Shown here piece by piece: positions 29,901-58,400 of a stretch of DNA of 64,000 bases. Under the pieces are notes generated by a model that saw nothing but the letters and a program-made list of their open reading frames with translations, ran no database searches and was not told the origin of the DNA. Both the position numbers and the translations under genes were made by a program. Each line of letters starts with the position of its first letter. Position 1 is the stretch's first letter. The DNA is from Iphione sp. A-MEVVRFRX5 (taxonomy: Eukaryota), in contig OZ320316.1 in assembly GCA_976226885.1 (NCBI GenBank), positions 88,970,001-89,034,000 on the forward strand, in the 5' to 3' direction.

Positions 29901-32251
29901 AAGCCCATACAAAAACAGAGATGTCAATACAGTGTCGAATACATCAGCCATGTGCCTATAAATCTGGAAAGACCATAATAATACTAGTCTTAAATATATA
30001 CCTGTACACTTCTATACCCACATTAATATTATAGCGAAAGCGCCTTTCCCAAGATCAAAATCGCATGTCGCCTGTGGTAATCATGTATGGATAGTATAGA
30101 TATCGTATGTTTTCAGGCTGCTTTTTTCCATTTCAGTATATCCGAATAGCCAGATTTTAATAGCATTGTCTGCATTAGCTCCGGCAAACCCTGAAAAGAA
30201 CGACGGGAGGACGCTATAGGCTGAAAGGGTCTTTGAGGAGACAGGCAAAACGATAATAATCCCTATTTAATAGGTCTGAGTCTCTGAGCCTAATGAAGGA
30301 AAAACTATGGTTCTGAAATGTATGTGATGATGGGTGGAAAAAGAAATTGACAGGCGAGCCGTACTGTCACAGGTATGGTCTGCTCGGATTCAGCTGATTC
30401 ATAATTAATTTCACTTTCTGATTGGCTTGATTACCACCTGTGGTCATGGTCACAGATCTGAGTAAAAGCTTGTTTTGCGTGGTCAAAATATCAACCAAGG
30501 GAAAACCATGTTGCATATTCATATATTCTTGCTTGCAGACTCCACTCTTCAACGTTATATTACACTTACTCCGAATAAGACTACTTTACGTTTCATGGGT
30601 CCTACTGAGCGAGAGCACTCCCAGGGTCGGGGGCAACGATTGGGTGTTATTATTTACGGTTCAATGTATGCACACTTTCTGCTGATGCAACAATGCACAC
30701 GGGGTCATTGTAATGATTGAAAACCAAGTCATTACGACATTTCATATTGCCATAATTAAATTCACTGAAGTTAAACTCATATCATCAAAACACACACGCA
30801 CAGGTCATAGCACGAGTGTAAGGTTTTCTGTTGCTGCGTGCCTACTGTAATTGGTTGAATGCATAATTGATCACAAAGGTTGTCCTTATGACGGAGTCCC
30901 CACTTAGGTAATAATTGCCGAGCTATTGTAGTGGGGAATAGGCCAGGCGGGGTGGAGTGCACCTCTCCCCAGCTGCCTACTCACCCTCACCTTTTGCCCT
31001 GGACGACCGACCCATAGGGATGAAAGCCACACCCTAACCAGGGGAAGAAAGAGCGCCTAGCTGTACTAATGGTCTCCGGGGACCGGCTCTGGTGGGCCCC
31101 TGGTGCTGGACTTTCTAATGTGTTCGCCATCCTTTTATCATCTCTCCTGGCACGTGTCTGCGCTGTTGAATTTCGGTCTAAAAGTTCGGCGCCTAATACG
31201 CTCTACAGGTAGTGGTTATCAGATTTTCAACAATCAAATAATACGCGCTATTGTAGCCATAACCCTGGATGCCTCCTCTCTAAGCATTGTGGCCGTGCCC
31301 TCGGGTGTCCCAGTGGAGATAGAGTCGGCATAAATTAGTGATACATTAATTATAGTCGGTCGCAAAGGGCCACCCCCCGAGTAAAAGACGATGTGGCCCC
31401 GGCGGCGGCAGCATCCTGCGCCACTCGACTCTCACGTCCCGGGTGCGTAGTTGGCATACCACCTGCTCCCCTCTTGGAGGCCCTCGCAGGCGTGTTCCAC
31501 TGCTCGCCAAACCGTCTCCGGGAGCTGCCGTCCGCCAGCAGCGTGAGAACATGCAGGTCTCGCTTCCGATAACAAACAGTCTGACTATACCACGGAGCGC
31601 GCTCAAATTTATAACCAAGCAATACTTTGTGCAAAGAGATCGATTGCATGAACCACAACAAAAAGCATGCCTTTGAAGTTGCGATGCATCTCGAGTGAGG
31701 CGATATGCCTTTTCCTGACAGAACGAGCCTTTGATGTTACAGAGCGTGTAAGAAACGGTGGAACGTATACGCCCATAATACCTGCTGTTCACGAGTATTT
31801 CCTTTAGATTTTTTTAAATGGCGTTAAAAAATATTGTCGATTTCTTGAAGTGGCATTGTACTCCCAAATGGCAGAGGCAAAATAATCACACCTGAATGTA
31901 TTTATGTACATTCATTCCTAATGAAAAAGAAATAACTAGAAAAAGAAATAACTATGCAGTCCTTAAATGTTTTGGCTGTATACAAATTGTGCTTGGTGGG
32001 CGTGGGGAAGGCGGAACGAACAGGAGCCTTGAGAATCAACAGAATTGATTGGGAAAATCTGCGTGCGTCTAAGCGATACTGATATGTATATATGTAAATT
32101 TATAACCATACATGGATAGAAAGATGTATATTTTTGTTCACATATGAATGTGTATGGGTGTTTGTTCTAGATTTATCCGTTGCAGTGGGAAACGTTTCTT
32201 CCACTCAGGCTTTTAAATCTTTGACTTTGGTTGTATCATTTCTCACTTCAG

Positions 32252-32907
32252 ATGCGTTATGGGAAGAAAAGCGGAAAAGTGTAGGATCCGGTGACCTGAA
32301 GCCTGTACCGGAAGAGGTCGCTCTGCGCCACAATCCTCCGTCTGACATAAACAACATCATTCCGCCATATACGACCACTTTCTCGCCCACTCGCGACACT
32401 GCCTTCACCACACGGCGTTACCCGGCGGGCGTCGTCGGAGGGGGCGGCAGTGCCCAGAAGTCGATGACCTCCCGGAGACTAGCGCCAAGACAGACACCGA
32501 ACAACAGGACCCAAGAATTAATGCGAGGTCACAAGGCGAACGGCGCGGGCCTGCTGGCTTCCAGCCCGCGAAACAGTCCCATGGGTTCCGGAGACAGTCT
32601 CAACGAGCAGCGGCGAGACCACGGCCAAACGCAGGGGGACGGCAAGAGTCCCAGCAGCAAGAGAACGAAAAAGGCCCCGGGCGGCAGTGATAAGAGTAAA
32701 GGGGAGGAGGTGATATATGTGAACACGTTTGGCCACCGAACACCGCTCCACCCGCTTGGCCGCGTAGACGAGACACTCGACGAGGGATCCGACGACAGCG
32801 CCAGCACGACCACTTCCGGTAGCTTCGAGGTCGACCAGGGAGATAGGTGCAGTGGGAATAGCATACAAACTGTGATTAACGCTACACAGATGGACACAGT
32901 GGTTTGA
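32252..32907 (+). CDS. Pcdh: Protocadherin terminal coding exon
   Basis: Acceptor ttgtatcatttctcacttcag|AT completes a phase-1 codon (G|AT = Asp) from the previous exon. Open to TGA at 32905-32907. Low-complexity S/G/T tail containing VNTFGH and ending QMDTVV. Confidence 0.8.
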
Positions 32908-47768: not shown

Positions 47769-49115
47769 TTAACAAGACCCTCCATCCTCTAACGTGATTG
47801 TTTTCAATGTGAGATTTCGCATCATACAGATCTGGGAGTTGAGCTCCTCAACCGAGACGGGATCAGTCGTCCGCGGGTATTTTCTAGTTTTTCTTCCGTT
47901 TTCTGCCAGCCCCAGGGTGTAATAATAGTCAGTTATGTTATCTGTGCAGCTAAAAGGCTTGATAGTCTCACAGAAGCGTTTCACTTTATCCTCATAGTTT
48001 GCTCTGCGGATGCCCAGCCGATGAATGTCGAGGAGCGTCGGGCCGGTCTCCTCGACGAAAATGCTCTGACGGATCTTTCGTTTGTTTTGTCGTGCGGAAG
48101 GTAAGGGCTTCGGCTTCCTGTCGACAGGTGGCACGCTCTTCAGCTGCGCCGCGTGATTGCTGGTAAAATGGACGGAAATCGGAGCTGTTTCCGGCCTCGC
48201 GCGACACCATACCTCGGCTTTGGCCTGTGCGCAATGGACCTGGTCTATGGCGTCTAGTTGTCCGAAGATGGACCCGTTAGAGTCGGTTTCTTCTGTCAAA
48301 GTGTCAGCTAATTTCGGCCCGGCCGTCCGGGGTCTGCAGTTTGTCATGCTAGTTACTGCGCCTGTCTCATCATTTACTTGCCCCCCTCCATCAGCTTCAT
48401 TGGCAATTGCGCCGGGGCCGTTGCTGAAGTCAGCTTTTGTAGACTGTAAACCACGGAGACCATTATAATGAGGAGTTGCAGGCCGGTCTACAGCGAGCAA
48501 CGTTGTCAGTTTCTGTACTCTCTCTCCATCCAAAATATCATCATTAATTTTCTTTAGAGGCATCCTAGTCACAAAAGCAGTGACCGGTCGCTGACGGCAC
48601 TCTCTCCTCCTATTATCGACTTGATTAAAGTTGACGTTGAGATCAGACCGTACTTTTATTGGGTCGTCCGTACTCGGGTCGGCGGGGATCCTCCTGCCAC
48701 CGCGAACAGGCGCACTCTTTGCAGGTCGCCTCATGCAGTCAGCTCTGGCGGTGTTCCGTTGGCGACTGGCCTGCCAAATTTTCTTCAACATGTTCTGCTG
48801 TTCCTCCTCAGCTCGACGGCCCACGTCTGTGTTAAACTTAGTACTGCCGTGCGCCCGCATCAGTTCAGCAACCAGTTGTTTATCCCCACGTCGCCGAGCA
48901 TGATCAAGTTTAGTTTGAGCTAGTTTCTCCTGGAAGCGGCTGTAAATTACCTTCTGGTCACTACATATTCTATTAACCACCAATCGTTCAGATCTGCTCA
49001 AAAGAGCCAGATTGCGAGACAATGCAAGTGATTCCTTGCAGTTCGCCATTTGCAATTCTGGCGACTTCTCCGAGTCCATAATAGCCATTTTAGCTAGAAG
49101 CCTAGTCGCACTCAT
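47769..49115 (-). CDS. Uncharacterised protein, 448 aa: N-terminal coiled coil (CCDC190-like from memory, unverified), disordered middle with RPxTA motifs; coding region has no intron
   Basis: Long stop-free ORF (490 codons in the track) in intergenic DNA. The likely start is ATG 49115 (gcaacgATG, A at -3), just after a possible acceptor gttattggtgtcag. Helical heptads at LSRNLALLSRSERLVVNRICSDQKVIYSRF. Confidence 0.8.
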   Translation of the reverse strand: MSATRLLAKMAIMDSEKSPELQMANCKESLALSRNLALLSRSERLVVNRICSDQKVIYSRFQEKLAQTKLDHARRRGDKQLVAELMRAHGSTKFNTDVGRRAEEEQQNMLKKIWQASRQRNTARADCMRRPAKSAPVRGGRRIPADPSTDDPIKVRSDLNVNFNQVDNRRRECRQRPVTAFVTRMPLKKINDDILDGERVQKLTTLLAVDRPATPHYNGLRGLQSTKADFSNGPGAIANEADGGGQVNDETGAVTSMTNCRPRTAGPKLADTLTEETDSNGSIFGQLDAIDQVHCAQAKAEVWCRARPETAPISVHFTSNHAAQLKSVPPVDRKPKPLPSARQNKRKIRQSIFVEETGPTLLDIHRLGIRRANYEDKVKRFCETIKPFSCTDNITDYYYTLGLAENGRKTRKYPRTTDPVSVEELNSQICMMRNLTLKTITLEDGGSC

Positions 49116-49865
49116 CGTTGCTGACACCAATAACATAAATCTGTTTCTTTCTCCTTTGATAAAATTGTGGAAAGAGTTGTGTGAAAACCACAGTATTGGG
49201 GAAGTTTTTAGTTTAACCAACCGCCATTGTTGATGAGTCATCTGTCAGAACAGGTTGTTCAGGCTTCCTCAGCGGCTGACACGTCCATAAGAAAATCGCA
49301 CTCCGCGACCACCAGAGAGTTAAAAATTGTGTTGAATAACTGAAATTCCCACGCAGAACATTGGATTTCACGGTTATCCAATTGTTATTCAGTACGAACT
49401 GCTGCCGTCTTGCACAAACAAACCCGCGTGGCGACGGCTTTGAAGTCCGCTAGGTTTTGGCCCGCTTTCCGTAGGACCGAAAACGAGATTGGAAAAATCC
49501 AGTTGTGTTTTGTCCCGGCTACTAGTTTACTCTCAGTCCCGGCAGTATCTACGTCCGCAAAAGGGAATTCCATTCCAAATCAAATACGCCGACTGTTTAT
49601 CCACTTTCAACTAACAGACCAGGTGACCATTCCTTCTTCTGTTTAATGGCGCGTGGAGACCGCATGTAAATACGACTGCAGGAGTCCCTGAGGAAGCGCA
49701 AACCCCGGTCGATTTAATCCATCAGCCGGTCATTATTTGCCAATCAGGGCAAGTCTATTCCTCTAAATCGTAGCCGACTCTACGTGTCCCTGATCCTGCA
49801 TGATCAATGCTGTTGTTAATCATAATCCTCCTGCGTTTCTGCTTTTCACTGGAGGAACATGTGCC

Positions 49866-51292: not shown

Positions 51293-51338
51293 ATATGTCA
51301 GTAACAACATGACGAGTGAGTGGGGGAAACAAGACACC
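51293..51338 (-). repeat. Split direct repeat B2 (46 bp)
   Basis: atatgtcagtaacaacatgacgagtgagtgggggaaacaagacacc, identical to 51483-51528. Confidence 0.95.
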
Positions 51339-51361: not shown

Positions 51362-51486
51362 AAGTCAAAAATTGCGCTGAAGTGTCCTTATAGAACCATA
51401 TCCATGGTGAGGTATATATGTAACCAGGCAACAGATAACAATCGTTTTGCGACATATATAAATATAATCCTTATATTAATACATAT
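51362..51486 (-). repeat. Split direct repeat A2 (125 bp)
   Basis: Matches 55306-55430 with 5 substitutions and no indels (offset 3944). Confidence 0.95.
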
Positions 51487-51528
51487 GTCAGTAACAACAT
51501 GACGAGTGAGTGGGGGAAACAAGACACC
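51483..51528 (-). repeat. Split direct repeat B1 (46 bp)
   Basis: Identical to 51293-51338; overlaps A2 by the 4 bases ATAT. Confidence 0.95.
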
Positions 51529-51539
51529 CAAACCCCCAA

Positions 51540-52598
51540 TCACACACGAAACGAGATGGATCTTTCGCAAGTAAGCATGTTATCAAAATCTGAATCAACA
51601 TATCTCTGCACACACGAAGACTTCCAATGTCCCCTCTGTTTGATCATGGCTAAATCAAAACCACACTTAGATAGAAAAGTGCTACCTCCCCTCCTAAAGG
51701 AGTGAGATGAAATTTGGCCCTCCAAGCCAATACTGTTACAAATGCTTTTTAAACGTTTCAAAAATTCTGAATACTGAAGAGTAACAACTTTACCATCAAC
51801 TGCTATAGAAAAAACCGGTTGATCATCGAATAATCGATGTTTACATTGTAGCAATTTTAACCATGAAACCGCACAAAAAATATAATCATCAACATAACAA
51901 ATAGGGATACAATAACCATCACAGCTTGCTTTGATAGTCTTCCCTCTATTAACATAAACTTTCGCACCGTAATCTGTAAAGCTGACCTCGCTCCACAATA
52001 AACATCTTCCAGAGGTGAATAATTCTTTTCTAAAAAGACATCTAAATGCCATAATGCATGCCACCCAGAATAACAAGTCGTCATTCTTACTAATGTCTAA
52101 ACAATAAAAAATCTTAGTCATCTCTTCCACATTAAAAGCACGAGCTCTTTTTGGCTCCCTATCACAGGACTTCTTTAAACCAGCCAAAACCTGGCACACA
52201 CCAAAATCTTTAATGTCAGGAGGTGGAGTTGAATACACTTTACTCCAAAACACTAGTCCAGAAAAATAGTTTCTAATAGATGTATAACAAAATTTCCTAC
52301 CCAAATATGCTAGATATAGGCATGCCTGTCTATTACTACATGGAAATTCACATAGACTATAATAACTGCAAAATTTTTTGTAGTCCTCAAGTTGAATCTC
52401 TCTACATTTCCTTGTGTTGGCAGAGATCGAGTTCCTCTTCAATTCGCACACTTCTCTCTTGAGTCTCCTTAGCCTTCCTGGAAGAGATTGAAAGTAATTC
52501 ACTACAGCAAGCTTTACATAACCATAGATCTCTCTCAAGGAAAAATAAACTCTTCTTTTCACAAATCCTCGATAGTGCATCTGCCAATACATTTTCAC
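51540..52598 (-). CDS. Tyrosine recombinase (YR) of the retrotransposon
   Basis: N-terminal SAM-like integrase region (YKKFC...ACLYLAYL...SIRNYFSGL), then catalytic LFRK, GKT, HSFRRGG and RGHWKSSCVQRY. The ORF overlaps the RNaseH C-terminus in another frame, as is typical for the group. The exact start codon is uncertain. Confidence 0.93.
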   Translation of the reverse strand: MKMYWQMHYRGFVKRRVYFSLREIYGYVKLAVVNYFQSLPGRLRRLKREVCELKRNSISANTRKCREIQLEDYKKFCSYYSLCEFPCSNRQACLYLAYLGRKFCYTSIRNYFSGLVFWSKVYSTPPPDIKDFGVCQVLAGLKKSCDREPKRARAFNVEEMTKIFYCLDISKNDDLLFWVACIMAFRCLFRKELFTSGRCLLWSEVSFTDYGAKVYVNRGKTIKASCDGYCIPICYVDDYIFCAVSWLKLLQCKHRLFDDQPVFSIAVDGKVVTLQYSEFLKRLKSICNSIGLEGQISSHSFRRGGSTFLSKCGFDLAMIKQRGHWKSSCVQRYVDSDFDNMLTCERSISFRV

Positions 52599-53139
52599 TT
52601 GTGCTTATATATTCGACAGCAAAATAAATATTTTTGATAACACATATCCAAAAAATCTCACGCAGCCAACGCATACAACAGATGTTACTACTTCGGCCAG
52701 TCCGTAACATGTATAGGACAGCCATATTGCCCACTCTCAGTAAAACATACTTGTTTTGCAACACATCCGACCATCTTTTAATAGCAATTAACATCGCCCA
52801 AAGTTCCTTCACATTAATATGGTCATCGTAATCATCAAGTGTTGGCCTGGGTTCTAAGTGATGGCCAAAATTCGTTGATTGATCAACATAGTCAGACCAA
52901 AAACCACAGAACCAGTCTGATTTACACCAGCCACCAAAACCAACCAAACTTGAATCTGTAGTGACAACCTCTTCAACACATCTAGGCTTGATTATCCTTT
53001 TCTTACCATTGAAAACATCAATAAAACTCCTCCACCATATTAGGTCTTGCTTGACATCATTACTCACTTTAACCTTGCCTCTACTGTTCTTACATTCTTT
53101 TAACAGCTCATAAAGGCTACGTGAATATGTCCTTCCCCC
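52402..53139 (-). CDS. RT C-terminus/RNase H domain of the retrotransposon (downstream of a +1 frameshift)
   Basis: GGRTYSRSL, DLIWWRSFIDVFNG, TTDSSLVGFGGW, HINVKELWAM, LRVGN (normally DN) and ISTSENVLADALSR. Confidence 0.9.
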   Translation of the reverse strand, partial: GGRTYSRSLYELLKECKNSRGKVKVSNDVKQDLIWWRSFIDVFNGKKRIIKPRCVEEVVTTDSSLVGFGGWCKSDWFCGFWSDYVDQSTNFGHHLEPRPTLDDYDDHINVKELWAMLIAIKRWSDVLQNKYVLLRVGNMAVLYMLRTGRSSNICCMRWLREIFWICVIKNIYFAVEYISTSENVLADALSRICEKKSLFFLERDLWLCKACCSELLSISSRKAKETQERSVRIEEELDLCQHKEM

Positions 53140-54448
53140 TTTTAACAACAGTTGAACAATGCGCAAGTGAGCCTGCTAAACTTTTCAGCTCTTTCTTAGA
53201 CATTTCATCCTTCTCTTGGGCATGCTCAATTTTACATTTCATTTCCTCAAGTTTACCTTCTGGTAATTTTAACTGCATATCAGATGAGTCGATCAAAATA
53301 CCCAAGAATTTACATTCTTTACTGGGGGAGGAACACTTTTCACTTGACACGTCAAAACCTATCACTCTGATGATGTCAATTAACTTCTGCTGGAACATCA
53401 AGCATTTGTCATAGCTTTTACCAAGGACAACAAAGTCATCGAGGTAATTAAAAATCCTACCTCCACATTGATATGAAAATTCATCAACGATGTAATTTGA
53501 GATCTGGCTAAAAATGTAAGGGACACATTTTAATCCAAAACATAGCGAGTTGTTCACATAAAATTTTTTCTTCTCCCCTTCCATTTCCCAGCCAAATCCT
53601 TGAAATTCTCTGTGTTCAGGACTTACTAAAACAGACCTATAAGCGTTCCTGATGTCACAGGTTGCTAACCAGTCATTTTCATTCAACATCACACAGACAT
53701 CATCCACCGATTTATAGCTGAACTCTCGGTGAGTAGTTGACATGAAGTTATTAATAGCCGACTTACCAGGCATTGAACAGTCTGTTATAGGCCTGAGTTT
53801 TCCATTACTTTTTAACACACCTCCTAAAGCATTAACACAGCGGGGTGGTTCTCTACATTCGGTAATATAACCACATTCAAGTTCACTGTTTACTTTTTCA
53901 TCCATTTGTGGCTTGAATTCCTCTGTGAGGATTGAATTATAATTTTCGCATCTGTACGTAGTCTCACAACCGACATCAACAATATCAAATCCTTCACTTA
54001 GGCCCTTCCGCAAAAATAATACTTCATCATCACTCAGCCTTGAATGACATAGCATAACAAAATTACGGCAGATTTTTAACGGTGTTTTTGCTCCACCAAT
54101 TTCTTGCTCGCAATTACAAGACCCTGAAACACATGTCTCATACACAGGAAAAGACTTTTTCCCACCATAACTTACAGCTAAACAACAAGCTGTTACATCA
54201 TCGTCATCACTAATTTTAACAAAACTCATCACCTCGCATACCTGAAACGGCATGTTGTCAAAAACAGCGTCATAACGATTATCACAGTTTTCAAATGACT
54301 CCGCCAGACTCTGCAAACTAGAAGTTTGATTATCATCATTATTCTTGGAACACTCATCATTAACATAGGTAGTCTCAGAAAATGCATCATTATCTGAAAA
54401 CTCACATATCCCTGTGTAAGTGTCCTTATTTCCTTGCGGAACAGCTAG
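53140..54448 (-). CDS. Reverse transcriptase frame of the retrotransposon (in frame with ORF1, begins immediately after the ORF1 stop)
   Basis: LKSNGKLRPITDCS, DIRNAYRSV, LCFGLKCVPYIF, NYLDDF, FLGILIDS. I read the frame codon by codon: it is open from 54448 to the frameshift at about 53140, and the first in-frame ATG is at 54253. Confidence 0.9.
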
Positions 54449-55282
54449 TCATTCCTTCTTCGACGAACTTTTCGTCTTGTTTGAGTCGCCACCTGACGAT
54501 TTAATGCTGTAACACTCAGTAGACCTATGCCCCACCTTGAGGCAATTCTGGCAGGCATGACGAAAACGACATGAATTGTCGTCACATAAACCGTTGTTAA
54601 ATTTAAAGCAGACTCCAGCATTCTTCTTAGCCTTCTTTTTCTGGTCTTTCTGTCTCGCCACATCCAAGGTTGCATCCAGACTCAAGAACCTGTGGACGTT
54701 CACTGTGTCACCGTAAGTAAAACTCTGCAGACCTTCCTCCTTTGCTTTGCACCTGACTTCTCTGTCGTATGATATCAAAGAGTCACTTGTATAAATCTTG
54801 GTTGATGCCCTATCAGCTATAAAGCTCACATGATCAACATATCCTGAACAGTCCAAATCCTTACTCATCATTTTCTTCAAGAGACCCAATGAACCAACCA
54901 TCAGGTCCTCAAATGACTGGACTTTACCGCCCTTCACATAAGCAGAGATGGAAAATTTTCCAGACTTATTACCTCTGCTGGTCTTCTTCCTTCTCTCCTT
55001 CATATCCTCTTCGTCTGAGCTCTGGGACGACTCCTCATCATCTGAGAACGAGCTGTCATCATCTTCCACCTTGCTCTTCTCCTTGGCACTGGGAGGCTTC
55101 GACGACAATAAAACCTCCAGCATAGATTCAATCTTCTCGAATCTCTTCTCAATATGTTCGTCTCTGGGATCAATTCCTCCAGTTGAGTCATCCTTGCTCT
55201 TCTCATTGGACTGAGTCCTAGTACAATTTTTTCCAACAGGAGAAACATGCTTAATTTGGCATTTCTTACAATATTTCTCCAT
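54449..55282 (-). CDS. Gag-like ORF1 (277 aa) of the retrotransposon
   Basis: Kozak-context start ctaaccATGg at 55282. N-terminal C-x2-C-x3-H-x7-C, acidic/serine linker, and C-terminal CFKFNNGLCDDNSCRFRH plus a CQNCLKVGHRSTEC zinc knuckle. Confidence 0.9.
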   Translation of the reverse strand: MEKYCKKCQIKHVSPVGKNCTRTQSNEKSKDDSTGGIDPRDEHIEKRFEKIESMLEVLLSSKPPSAKEKSKVEDDDSSFSDDEESSQSSDEEDMKERRKKTSRGNKSGKFSISAYVKGGKVQSFEDLMVGSLGLLKKMMSKDLDCSGYVDHVSFIADRASTKIYTSDSLISYDREVRCKAKEEGLQSFTYGDTVNVHRFLSLDATLDVARQKDQKKKAKKNAGVCFKFNNGLCDDNSCRFRHACQNCLKVGHRSTECYSIKSSGGDSNKTKSSSKKE

Positions 55283-55305: not shown

Positions 55306-55430
55306 AAGTCAAAAATTGTGCTGAAGTGTCGTTATAGAAGCATATCCATGGTGTGGTATATATGTAACCAGGCAACAGATAACAATCGTTTTGGGACATA
55401 TATAAATATAATCCTTATATTAATACATAT
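55306..55430 (-). repeat. Split direct repeat A1 (125 bp), 5' terminus of the element
   Basis: 96% identical to 51362-51486. Confidence 0.95.
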
Positions 55431-58400
55431 ATTTCTACCATCATTTGTTGTAAAGGTTTCAAAATAATACAAAACTAAAACGTAACAATTGGCTGTACTG
55501 TAGGCTTAATATAATGAATTGTGAAAGAAAACAGTCTTACCGAAGAAACCCCCATCGGAACTTTGCTATAGGGAAATCAAACATCTGTGAATGATGGTTT
55601 AAATGCAAAAACGCCATTCTTTCAGGTGAACCTCTGTTTAGAGGAACATGAATTCTTATAATTTGTATCCAGTTGCTAGGTAAGCAGTCTTATGATCACA
55701 TGGGAACTCAAAAACCTTGTACGTTTATAAGGTTGATATATGTATATGCTTATGACTGATTCCACCAATAGATGTATGAGTTGTATTCTCCAGGACTGCT
55801 GCATAAGAAACAGAAAAGCTACAGAAACGAATTGTTTTATAATAAAAACAAATTTAGAATCAGACTCCTGATGTCCCCCAGAACCAGCCACACAAAAATG
55901 TTTTAAAATATCAAATTAAGACTGTACTTTCACTGAAAAGAGGCAGTCACGGAGAATACGTACTGCTGGTATAACTATTTGTGGAAGCAGTCATATATGT
56001 ACAGGTGGTATTTGTACAAACATATAAAATCAGTCATATTATTCCGATATATCTAATTATATGATAGAATTATTACATTGCTTTTCCCAATGATAAAAGA
56101 CTGTCCTTTCTCACTCTGCTTCATGAAACATTACTAGGAAAAACATTTAAAATTCTTTTCACGAAAAAGAATATGTTATTCTTTCAACCAGTCATGATTA
56201 CATATAACCTGTGGTGATATCCCATACTACCACATATAAGCATCAGTCATATCCATGCTGCTGCTGATGCACCTTCTTGGCATGAAGTATGCATACTTAC
56301 ACATCGTTAAAAATGTCTTCCCTGTTAAACGGATATCGATTTCAATTTACTAGCATGAATGATCACTTAGACATGACAAGATAATATCACATAAGTTTAT
56401 CCAAATCGATTACATGTTGCGATAGGCAGACCTTTGTGTTGAATAGCAGAAGCGTTTTGACTACTGAACAAGATATCACGAAATCGCATCTTGTGGAACA
56501 TTCTTCCTGAACATATACACCCATTGTGTATAATACTAGTGATCAGCAATAGCCAATGATCGATGGGCATATTATAGATTACTATATGATATAGTTATGT
56601 AAGTACCTGGTAGGACGTTTTGGAGTTGATAGCATCATCTGTCGAGCGTTTTTGTGAACATTCTGTTTGCAGAATTCTACCCTTTTTCGGGTCTCCTCAG
56701 GTACAAAATATGCGTTCTCTTGAGACCAGACGTAGAGGAAGAATTAGGCATATTATCTGGTTGATGAGATGACAGTCAATGTTTAATGCCTCAAACATAT
56801 TCTTACACTAATGTAGATAAGTGACACTACTGATGGAACGTTTAATAAGCAATGGCAATTGTTGGCCACAAAGTACAAAATGTATCTGTTCCTGGACTAA
56901 AAAGTATGTGAAGCTGGTATGTACTATTACATATTGTGGGTTACTCTATCAATGGCAGTCACAATATTCTTGTGTTTCAATTCTCCCCGTGTTTGTATCG
57001 CTGAAGAACACAGTGGTACTATGAAGAATCACTGGATGCATACTGCTGGGAGGAAAGTTTTCGTTTATCCTCCTTTTCCGTGAGTAGAAAAATAACTATG
57101 GACTTAATATCACTGTATGCGATGGTTCACCCATTATTTATGTCTATATTTGATTATGGTGCTTCCTCTATATACTCCTTATAGTCTCGGACATACTCGG
57201 CCAGTTGGTCAGTTGGGATACTTTGTCATTATGTACAACGAAACGCGTGGCCAGCACGATTGGTCGTGTAAAATGATATACCCAATCAGCATGATTTGTC
57301 GTATCAGTATGAGATACATCCCTAACGTGGTACAATTATTCACTTTGCGCGGTAACATAGGCAGTCAACTGTCATTTGTAATATGTTTCTTCCCTAGTAT
57401 CTTACAGCATATATAGCCCTGACTCCCTCGTGCCCATCTTTTATCTCTATGTCGTTTTCTGAACATCATGATATACGCGGAAGTGCTGTTAAGCAATTGT
57501 GTTTGTTGAGTACAGTAACCTTTGAGATGTATGAATTCGTCGCGTCATCAGAGACCTGCTACGAGTTCATTCCACATCAGTGAATCACCTAGTAGCACAA
57601 AGCCAACACCACAAGTCAGGTTCAATATCAGCCTTTTATTCTTTAACACTGTTTTAAGTCTAGTTTCATTCAACACTGAAGAACTGAATGAGGGAACACA
57701 AGTTCCTGTGAGACAATTTTTTCATCCAGTACCTTTACTTTACAGTAGGCTTTACTTTAGTATTTCTATCTATACACTGTACATAACATAATGTCATACC
57801 AATACTGCTTGCACTAGAGCATAACTTTCGGTGATTTATACATTGGTTTAAACGTTATACAATATTACCCTGTTTAAGAGCATTGTTTCTATCAACACAT
57901 CATCACCTTTATTCGAATTGTGTTACAACCAGTCAAGTTACTTTTTTTGGGTATGGCACCAGAATCGTGATATGAAATAAATTCATGAATGAAATGCTTG
58001 ATATAACTTTGATGTCAACCCCTCCAGCATACCCGATGCTAGGGATCACTCCATTCATCATCACTAGGGAAATCAAGTCCAGGTAAGAGCAATTTTGTAA
58101 AGCGGATATGTCATCAACACCAGTCATATGTCCCACCATGCCATTTTGACGTAAACTTTTGACATGTTTCTTTGTAATATTTCGTGCTCCCGCAGGGAAG
58201 GTTAGGATGCAGCGGGAGGTAAGCTCTCTGTATGGGGTGAACTCTTGTACCTCATGACGGCCGCATAAGGACGTACGAAGCCATCCAGGATAACAAGGGT
58301 TCCCTTCATCACTGACCTTGTGCCTCTGGATCCAAGCCGCTTGTGTGTTTTTCCTTCACAGCCTACCAGTGGAAGGATTGCCTTCCACAATATACATGCT

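Follow-up and report, generated by a model that had tools for sequence, protein, structure and literature searches.

We analysed a stretch of 64,000 nucleotides (nt) of the genome of Iphione sp. A-MEVVRFRX5 (assembly GCA_976226885.1, contig OZ320316.1, positions 88,970,001 to 89,034,000; the window), which contains on its minus strand a Ngaro-like tyrosine recombinase (YR) retrotransposon. Between its gag-like open reading frame (ORF) and its reverse transcriptase (RT) frame lies an in-frame stop with the context TGA-CTA(G) (54445..54451), a predicted type II readthrough site. Comparison with relatives indicates that this conserved stop is real and most likely serves programmed readthrough, a known mechanism that we did not find described in this order of elements. 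Predicted splice signals, which an earlier sequence-only reading had not noticed, frame the junction: an acceptor ending at 52478 and two donors whose introns would start at 54972 (D1) and 54405 (D2).

The gag-like ORF1 (277 aa, 54449..55282, ATG at 55282) ends with TGA at 54451-54449, followed directly by CTAG, and the same frame then stays open for 443 codons (53117..54448) through the RT domain (RVT_1, E-value 2.4e-18), as the sequence-only reading had described. Its placement of the first AUG at codon 66, position 54253, is also correct. The RT/RNase H frame of the window copy is broken near 53140, and this copy alone is therefore unable to tell a signal from a mutation. Searching its own genome (1.18 Gb) yielded 136 candidates with 40 scored matches, and 38 stretches cover the 39 matches other than the window. 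Thirty relatives with normal spacing were aligned (median DNA identity 61%); 41 elements have a gag end, of which 36 could be anchored at the junction. A separate sample was selected by similarity to a distant RT protein alone (48 of 62 matches examined), and genome-wide patterns were freed of one junction part at a time, with the first 100 matches counted by eye. A quick tree of the own-genome elements and unnamed proteins resolved four own-genome clades, A (which includes the window), B, C and D. All counts below ignore kinship among elements.

TGA is present in 35 of the 36 anchored relatives (the other has TGG) and CTA comes next in 34, while column counts in the alignment show that conservation collapses straight after position +4. 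Among five elements that could not be anchored, four have TGACTA and in one the junction is deleted. The pattern GAYTGACTA-N39-TGTRAGT matched the genome 201 times, compared to 2 matches for the reversed control. When the stop was left free, 132 matches were obtained (control 2), and the first 100 listed comprise 95 TGA, 4 TAA and 1 GGA; the five TAA or GGA copies are decayed, with RT frames closing within 33-81 codons. When the context was left free, 172 matches were obtained (control 10), with CTA in 92 and CTG in 3 of the first 100 listed. The same elements provide an internal control, since TGA-CTA occurs at none of 33 RT/RNase H stops and at none of 23 YR stops.

The sample selected by RT similarity gives the same picture. 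A gag knuckle, an in-frame stop and an open linker were found together in 41 of 48 loci (40 TGA, 1 TAG), and a sense fusion of gag and RT in none of the 48. The sequence-only reading had named a sense codon in other copies, or ORF1 and RT lying out of frame, as observations that would count against it; no sense fusion turned up in this sample and the two frames agree in those 41 loci. Its proposal that the element makes a Gag-RT-RNase H polyprotein by readthrough is thus supported by the conserved frame, the conserved TGA-CTA and an open linker, and we regard programmed readthrough of the gag/RT stop as very probable on this comparative evidence. Open frames of 970-1058 codons were considered as candidate gag-pol fusions and rejected, as each still contains the in-frame TGA. 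Two elements, L129 and L130, have RT/RNase H frames of 979 and 971 codons that extend past the usual end; in L129 a frame change, probably specific to this copy, places the YR in the frame of RT.

The clades differ in how the stop is dressed. Clade A combines UGA-CUA with a donor at +43. Clade B has UGA-CUA in 14 of 16 elements, CTAG in 2 of 16, and AAR, not GAY, ahead of the TGA. In clade C there is an in-frame TGA (one TAG) without CUA, and clade D has UGA-CUA or UGA-CGG. Within clade A, 29 of 33 intact elements have a G after CTA, and CTAT, CTAA and CTAC also occur in intact elements. Judged from these alignments, the conserved core is UGA-CUA, with a preferred and dispensable G at +4; of the CTAG tetranucleotide whose conservation had been named as a check, the CTA part therefore held, with the final G as a preference.

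The stop is followed by a 65-codon acidic linker (54254..54448) that is open and under weak amino-acid constraint. Its codons 2-14 share 31% nucleotide and 9.5% amino-acid identity between families. In 91 loci, which include decayed copies and were not chosen for openness, these codons contain 4 in-frame stops, compared to 127 and 105 in the other two frames, and the next 50 codons contain 43 compared to 246 and 915. The pooled ratio of nonsynonymous to synonymous substitution (dN/dS) is about 0.5 in the linker and 0.11-0.13 in gag and RT, with the caveat that dS is near saturation and the pairs were picked by linker identity. The linker thus appears to resemble a translated flexible spacer, unlike a 5' untranslated region. 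The first Met is found anywhere from codon 6 to codon 181 and lies past a conserved motif in 4 of 33 elements. Because its position is not fixed, initiation at AUG 54253, which the sequence-only reading had listed as a competing explanation for RT synthesis, is unsupported, and we rejected this codon as the RT start.

We found no conserved 3' structure or long-range duplex in clades A and B (mean z-scores -0.33 and -0.51). The 4-bp hairpin with a GNRA loop (TTCC-GCAA-GGAA, 54430..54441) that had been suggested as a stimulator does exist in the window, but it is not conserved and we judge it incidental: of 35 elements, two (the window copy and a 94%-identical sibling) carry a hairpin of this kind at the same place, and one more lies at another offset. 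The covariation expected of it failed to appear, with 36% of its cells paired in 20 aligned elements compared to 33.5% after shuffling (143 of 500 shuffles as high), and it is missing from the minimum free energy fold of 54460-54330 (z -1.5). As a readthrough stimulator it was therefore rejected, being confined to two near-identical copies with pairing at chance level, and we regard it as no part of the signal.

Clade C presents a different case. Its elements (L101, L104, L108, L109, L113-L115, L118, L120, L127, L129, L130, L133, L140, L143 and L148) share an interrupted 14-bp stem that starts 12 nt after the stop and closes about 120 nt after it. In this stem 93.8% of cells are paired and 10 pairs show two-sided changes; none of 500 shuffles did as well and slid controls gave 30-50%, where the shuffles take no account of relatedness and the slid controls are biased towards a structure that itself comes from this alignment. 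The complementary distribution of CUA context and 3' stem among the clades is, on sequence comparison, the strongest independent indication of a purposely leaky stop. A conserved GACG within the clade-C loop could form an alternative local hairpin. In clade A, a conserved GACTGAC at the stop (54454-54448 in the window) is complementary to the GTGAGTY of the D2 donor (54405-54399), with 6 predicted pairs; no compensatory change was seen, and the GAA of the window breaks one pair.

These features were compared with those of characterised recoding sites. Type II readthrough combines UGA-CUA or UGA-CGG with extended 3' stems after a spacer of 8-12 nt (PMC3159437; features also in PMC13517186), and UGA_CUAG is reported to give 1.5-17% readthrough in human (mammalian) cells (PMC9841425). 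In the window's clade UGA-CUA is conserved beyond coding need and the downstream ORF is in frame, open and without a fixed start; a stimulatory 3' structure, which is frequent and not obligatory at such sites, is absent there and present in clade C. The hexamers of clades A, B and D are those of alphavirus nsP3-nsP4, tobravirus and furovirus, and mammalian OPRL1-type sites. The extended clade-C stem, which begins 12 nt downstream of the stop and encloses a long variable loop, resembles those described in PMC3159437. Unlike the viral type II sites, context and stem are split between sister clades, and the host is a non-viral retrotransposon. The gammaretrovirus MuLV makes its Gag-Pol fusion through an in-frame gag stop, as we propose for the window element. 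It uses UAG with a compact pseudoknot after an 8-nt spacer (PMC3159437), whereas the window element has UGA-CUA without a structure and, unlike MuLV, encodes no protease and no DDE integrase.

The YR frame requires an explanation of its own. ORF3 (51540..52477; Phage_integrase E-value 2.5e-7, with HSFRRG and HWKS motifs) has 311 codons after the predicted acceptor and no start codon of its own. The acceptor, a pyrimidine tract plus CAG in phase 1 (52478..52500), falls exactly at the start of YR homology, and a pyrimidine tract with YAG is found at this place in 29 of 30 clade-A elements and in all 16 elements each of clades B and C. Upstream of it the YR frame is closed within 3-61 codons, and there is no shared ATG. 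Homologues from other sources were also consulted (120, of which 102 could be anchored and 84 have an Arg at the acceptor position). The residue before this Arg is Phe, Tyr, Cys, His, Asp or Asn in 60 of the 84 (background 26%), and in none of them is it a residue whose codon is unable to end in a pyrimidine. A near-cognate start at the Leu codon after the acceptor was rejected because intact elements carry CTA, CTC or ATC there. A +1 frameshift from RNase H into YR was likewise set aside; no shared slippery motif was found, and such a shift would leave the pyrimidine tract unexplained.

The predicted partner of this acceptor is D1, a phase-1 donor within gag (GAG/GTAATA, 54967..54975) that follows codon 103. 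Of 56 clade-A loci, 42 have an RG/GTR donor in phase 1 at 500-550 nt ahead of the stop, compared to 1 and 0 in the other phases; D1 is also found in 10 of 15 clade-B loci and in both clade-D elements, and is less regular in clade C. The Gly codon at D1 is GGT in 20 of 24 cases, GGC in 4 and GGA or GGG in none, while GGT makes up 36% of Gly codons elsewhere in gag (P about 3e-6, uncorrected for relatedness). Joining D1 to the acceptor gives a sense codon in all 23 junctions scored. An apparent donor at 54786 was discarded, as it reflects a protein motif (Y-T-S/N/P-D/E-S) and its GT is missing in several intact elements.

The donor D2 (T/GTGAGT, phase 1, 54400..54406) lies 43 nt after the stop and is present in 29 of 30 aligned elements. 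It reads TGT GAG T in 28 of 33, with synonymous sites fixed, although this set is partly selected by pattern. Among the first 100 matches listed, 84 have stop and donor 43 nt apart, and the spacing never exceeds 53 nt within a search range of 28-58 nt. The D2-acceptor junction is in phase and creates a stop codon in 31 of 33 elements. In the subfamily of L149, L150 and L151 the donor after the stop is at +51 and in phase 0 (T/GTAAGT), and stops occur within 5-19 codons of the junction; the intact phase-0 variant that was scored has its stop 5 codons past the junction. A use of D2 for a Gag-readthrough-YR product was dropped, since the junction codon is a stop and a donor within gag exists. Taken together, the donor and acceptor consensus is, in these alignments, conserved at synonymous sites and phase-compatible, with D1 patchy in clade C.

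We hypothesize the following expression programme. The full-length RNA would be translated into Gag, and a leak at UGA-CUA, likely of a few percent, would yield the Gag-RT-RNase H fusion. In clade A this leak would be set by the UGA-CUA context alone, without 3' structure, and in the sister clade C, without CUA, likely by the long-range 3' stem. Removal of a 2495-nt intron (54972-52478) would join the first 103 gag codons in frame to YR, giving a 415-residue Gag-N/YR protein; we consider this splice probable, slightly less firmly than the readthrough itself. Removal of a 1928-nt intron (54405-52478) would eliminate RT/RNase H and create the new junction stop, and the resulting RNA would be devoted to Gag. 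Nonsense-mediated decay is avoided if a junction lies within 50-55 nt of the stop; the D2 junction would fall inside this boundary, and its fresh stop would catch leaking ribosomes. A role of the 43-nt donor in a Gag-only RNA is favoured, though by a modest degree. Readthrough plus predicted splicing is, with good probability, the best explanation of the whole, while the complete three-RNA programme of this 4.2-kb Ngaro-type unit, together with a swap of CUA for a stem between sister clades, stands at about even chances.

Several observations weigh against this interpretation. Seven of the 48 loci selected by RT similarity depart from the arrangement: 3 are out of frame, 1 has a premature stop, and in 2 no knuckle and in 1 no RT motif was found. 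The amino-acid constraint on the linker is weak: of the checks that the sequence-only reading had proposed for it, stop avoidance and the pooled dN/dS came out as it expected, but dN/dS for the window against L032 is 1.07. Relatives L079-L098 and L149-L188 were retrieved via patterns that contain TGACTA, which makes the motif count in intact clade-A elements (33 of 33) partly circular; the motif was tested freely in the anchored relatives, the stop-free and context-free patterns and the RT-selected sample only. Concerning the splice signals, the strict rule failed to locate D1 within its expected range in 14 of 56 clade-A loci, 5 of 15 in clade B and 10 of 14 in clade C, and the scores of many D1 sites with a generic matrix are only moderate. 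D2 is absent from clades B-D, and an intact element, L079 (G000:C26:24045500-24050300; open RT/RNase H frame of 688 codons, YR of 311, a near-basal branch of clade A), carries a C ahead of D2 and would hence give a sense junction (Arg). Two pattern searches for genomic copies that lack the predicted introns stayed at background, with 2 matches (control 5) and 3 matches (control 2), none of them an element. Finally, the in-frame gag-UGA-pol junction of Candida albicans Tca2 gave no readthrough in a yeast reporter (PMC2194720), so that an in-frame UGA is by itself no proof of readthrough. Tca2 shares the in-frame UGA with the window element, whose stop is flanked by a characterised leaky motif that is conserved across families.

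Could the junction be explained without readthrough? The AG of CTAG might be a 3' splice site, to which D1 would be joined in frame to give a Gag-N/RT-RNase H protein. This AG, at +5/+6, is in phase 1 as is D1, CTGAC resembles the branch-point consensus, and the frequent G after CTA in clade A would also be accounted for. However, no more than 4 nt separate this AG from the supposed branch A, and the 18 nt ahead of the AG contain 30% pyrimidines compared to 72% at the YR acceptor; intact elements with CTAT, CTAA or CTAC exist, and clade B has CTAG in so few elements and AAR for GAY. Moreover, the next downstream AG shows no phase preference (11/11/11) and no acceptor is conserved within the linker. 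On pyrimidine content and clade variation we rejected this acceptor, which we hold to be improbable. Equally improbable is a fresh start of RT/RNase H at a downstream AUG, whether by reinitiation, internal entry or a promoter in the junction, with the stop as a leftover. Every element has some AUG, the gag-pol junction of Tca2 has a minor promoter (PMC2194720), and in clade C 12 of 16 elements share a GCC-ATG at codon 41. The unfixed first AUG, which in those 4 of 33 elements falls within the conserved domain, and the avoidance of stops upstream of it argue against such a start, as does the clade-C ATG, which is ATC, ATT or ATA in 4 of 16 elements and changes together with the bases opposite it in the stem; a CTA fixed at the gag stop only would also be left unexplained. 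It is extremely improbable, and contradicted by the conservation counts, that the window copy is a dead element with one gag-pol ORF into which a private nonsense mutation brought the TGA. The window copy is damaged elsewhere and two relatives have a sense codon (TGG, GGA), but 35 of the 36 anchored relatives and 41 of the 48 RT-selected loci, which span four clades, keep the stop, and both sense-codon copies have interrupted RT/RNase H frames.

A less remote alternative, which we consider possible and distinctly less likely than a Gag-only RNA, accepts readthrough and assigns D2 another job: a full Gag-YR protein through readthrough of two stops, U1 binding without cleavage, or pairing with the stop region. 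The phase of D2 matches the YR acceptor, the junction of L079 would be sense, GACTGAC could pair with the donor, and U1 binding is reported to guard full-length Copia RNA (PMC5580714). On the other side, the junction stops are a mixture of TGA, TAG and TAA with no shared leaky context, a nucleotide other than T before the donor is at background genome-wide (8 compared to 10 in the control), and intact elements carry the phase-0 variant. D1 already yields a sense Gag-YR junction, and the stop-donor pairing lacks compensatory change. We therefore retain programmed readthrough for the stop and, with the lesser confidence stated above, the Gag-only role for D2.

In Ty1/Copia elements gag and pol form one ORF, and the ratio of the products depends on splicing alone; Drosophila copia is among the elements with a spliced Gag RNA. 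In Arabidopsis EVD (Ty1/Copia) an alternative splice likewise produces a short RNA devoted to Gag, comparable to what we propose for D2 (PMC5580714). In contrast to Copia, the predicted splice in the window element would act on top of readthrough, with an acceptor common to the recombinase RNA. The sequence-only reading did not recall such a strategy for DIRS/Ngaro elements, and we too found no published description of readthrough or splicing in them in the searched literature, which leaves Repbase entries, supplements, Goodwin and Poulter 2004 and Poulter and Butler 2015 uncovered. How the RT/RNase H and YR ORFs of DIRS-order elements, which often lack a start, are expressed is unexplained in the literature consulted. 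This locus and its at least 200 relatives offer a specific answer with exact coordinates. If the three-RNA programme is true, it would explain the expression of start-less pol and YR ORFs in this order, hundreds of readthrough signals would form a natural series, and an alphavirus-type signal in a protease-less YR retrotransposon would extend recoding to another order. The exchange of CUA and stem between sister clades would offer a comparison for what makes UGA leaky. There is also a consequence for annotation: ORF finders start these RTs at an arbitrary Met, with unrelated starting positions in all 120 of the listed homologues, and they could take the stop for a sign of decay.

The predicted strategy is lineage-specific. 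Neither a single-protein metagenome scan nor viral contigs gave relatives outside the own genome, and an alignment scan of metagenomes found two short loci with relatives. In one of these, L078 (33% RT identity, YR-type), gag ends in TGA-TGA and RT overlaps gag in a different frame, and the arrangement is therefore not universal.

The element is bounded by split direct repeats in the order A1...B1-A2-B2 and lies inside a (TA)n tract. Repeat A1 forms the 5' end (55306..55444, 139 nt, 92% identical to its partner A2 at 51362..51500) and B2 the 3' end (51293..51338), with B1 at 51483..51528 (46 nt, identical to B2), all on the minus strand. The repeat search found no inverted terminal repeats of the DIRS-1 type bounding the element. 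ORF1 has an N-terminal CxxC/H/C motif, an acidic-basic linker, a C-terminal zinc knuckle and a final K-E-stop; its assignment as gag is based on position and a weak zf-CCHC_3 match (E-value 0.014, below cut-off) only. The RNase H part of ORF2 (52402..53175) shares the frame of RT in intact relatives, 17 of which have a single open RT/RNase H frame of 657-692 codons. An RT_RNaseH Pfam match was obtained in 10 of 15 intact relatives, and none of the 15 has a Pfam match to a methyltransferase after RNase H; ORF2 ends about 30-55 residues past an ADALSR-like motif. Ngaro-like elements are defined by gag, RT/RNase H and YR, split direct repeats and absence of a methyltransferase (PMC9210276; PMC7192593), a domain that follows RNase H in DIRS-like and PAT-like elements (PMC9210276). 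The window element has the three ORFs in this order, the split repeats and no methyltransferase, as do Ngaro-like elements (PMC9210276), and it fits their structural definition. In Xenopus Ngaro all frames overlap and a hydrolase ORF follows YR (PMC9210276); the window element, by contrast, has gag and RT in frame over a conserved stop, no hydrolase, and a YR that begins at a predicted acceptor.

Elsewhere in the window, open frames at 47769-49244 (minus strand, 491 codons) and 32098-32907 (plus strand, 269 codons) gave no Pfam match and are probably host exons. The window copy (55444-55425; 51300-51280) and many relatives (5' flanks of L031-L068) start in (TA)n or TA-rich tracts. The junction of the B and A repeats is ATAT, which together with these flanks suggests that the recombinase prefers TA microsatellite targets. 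Locus L031 (G000:C22:4068000-4077500) holds two elements from different families in head-to-head orientation, one on each strand, which appear to share one TA tract.

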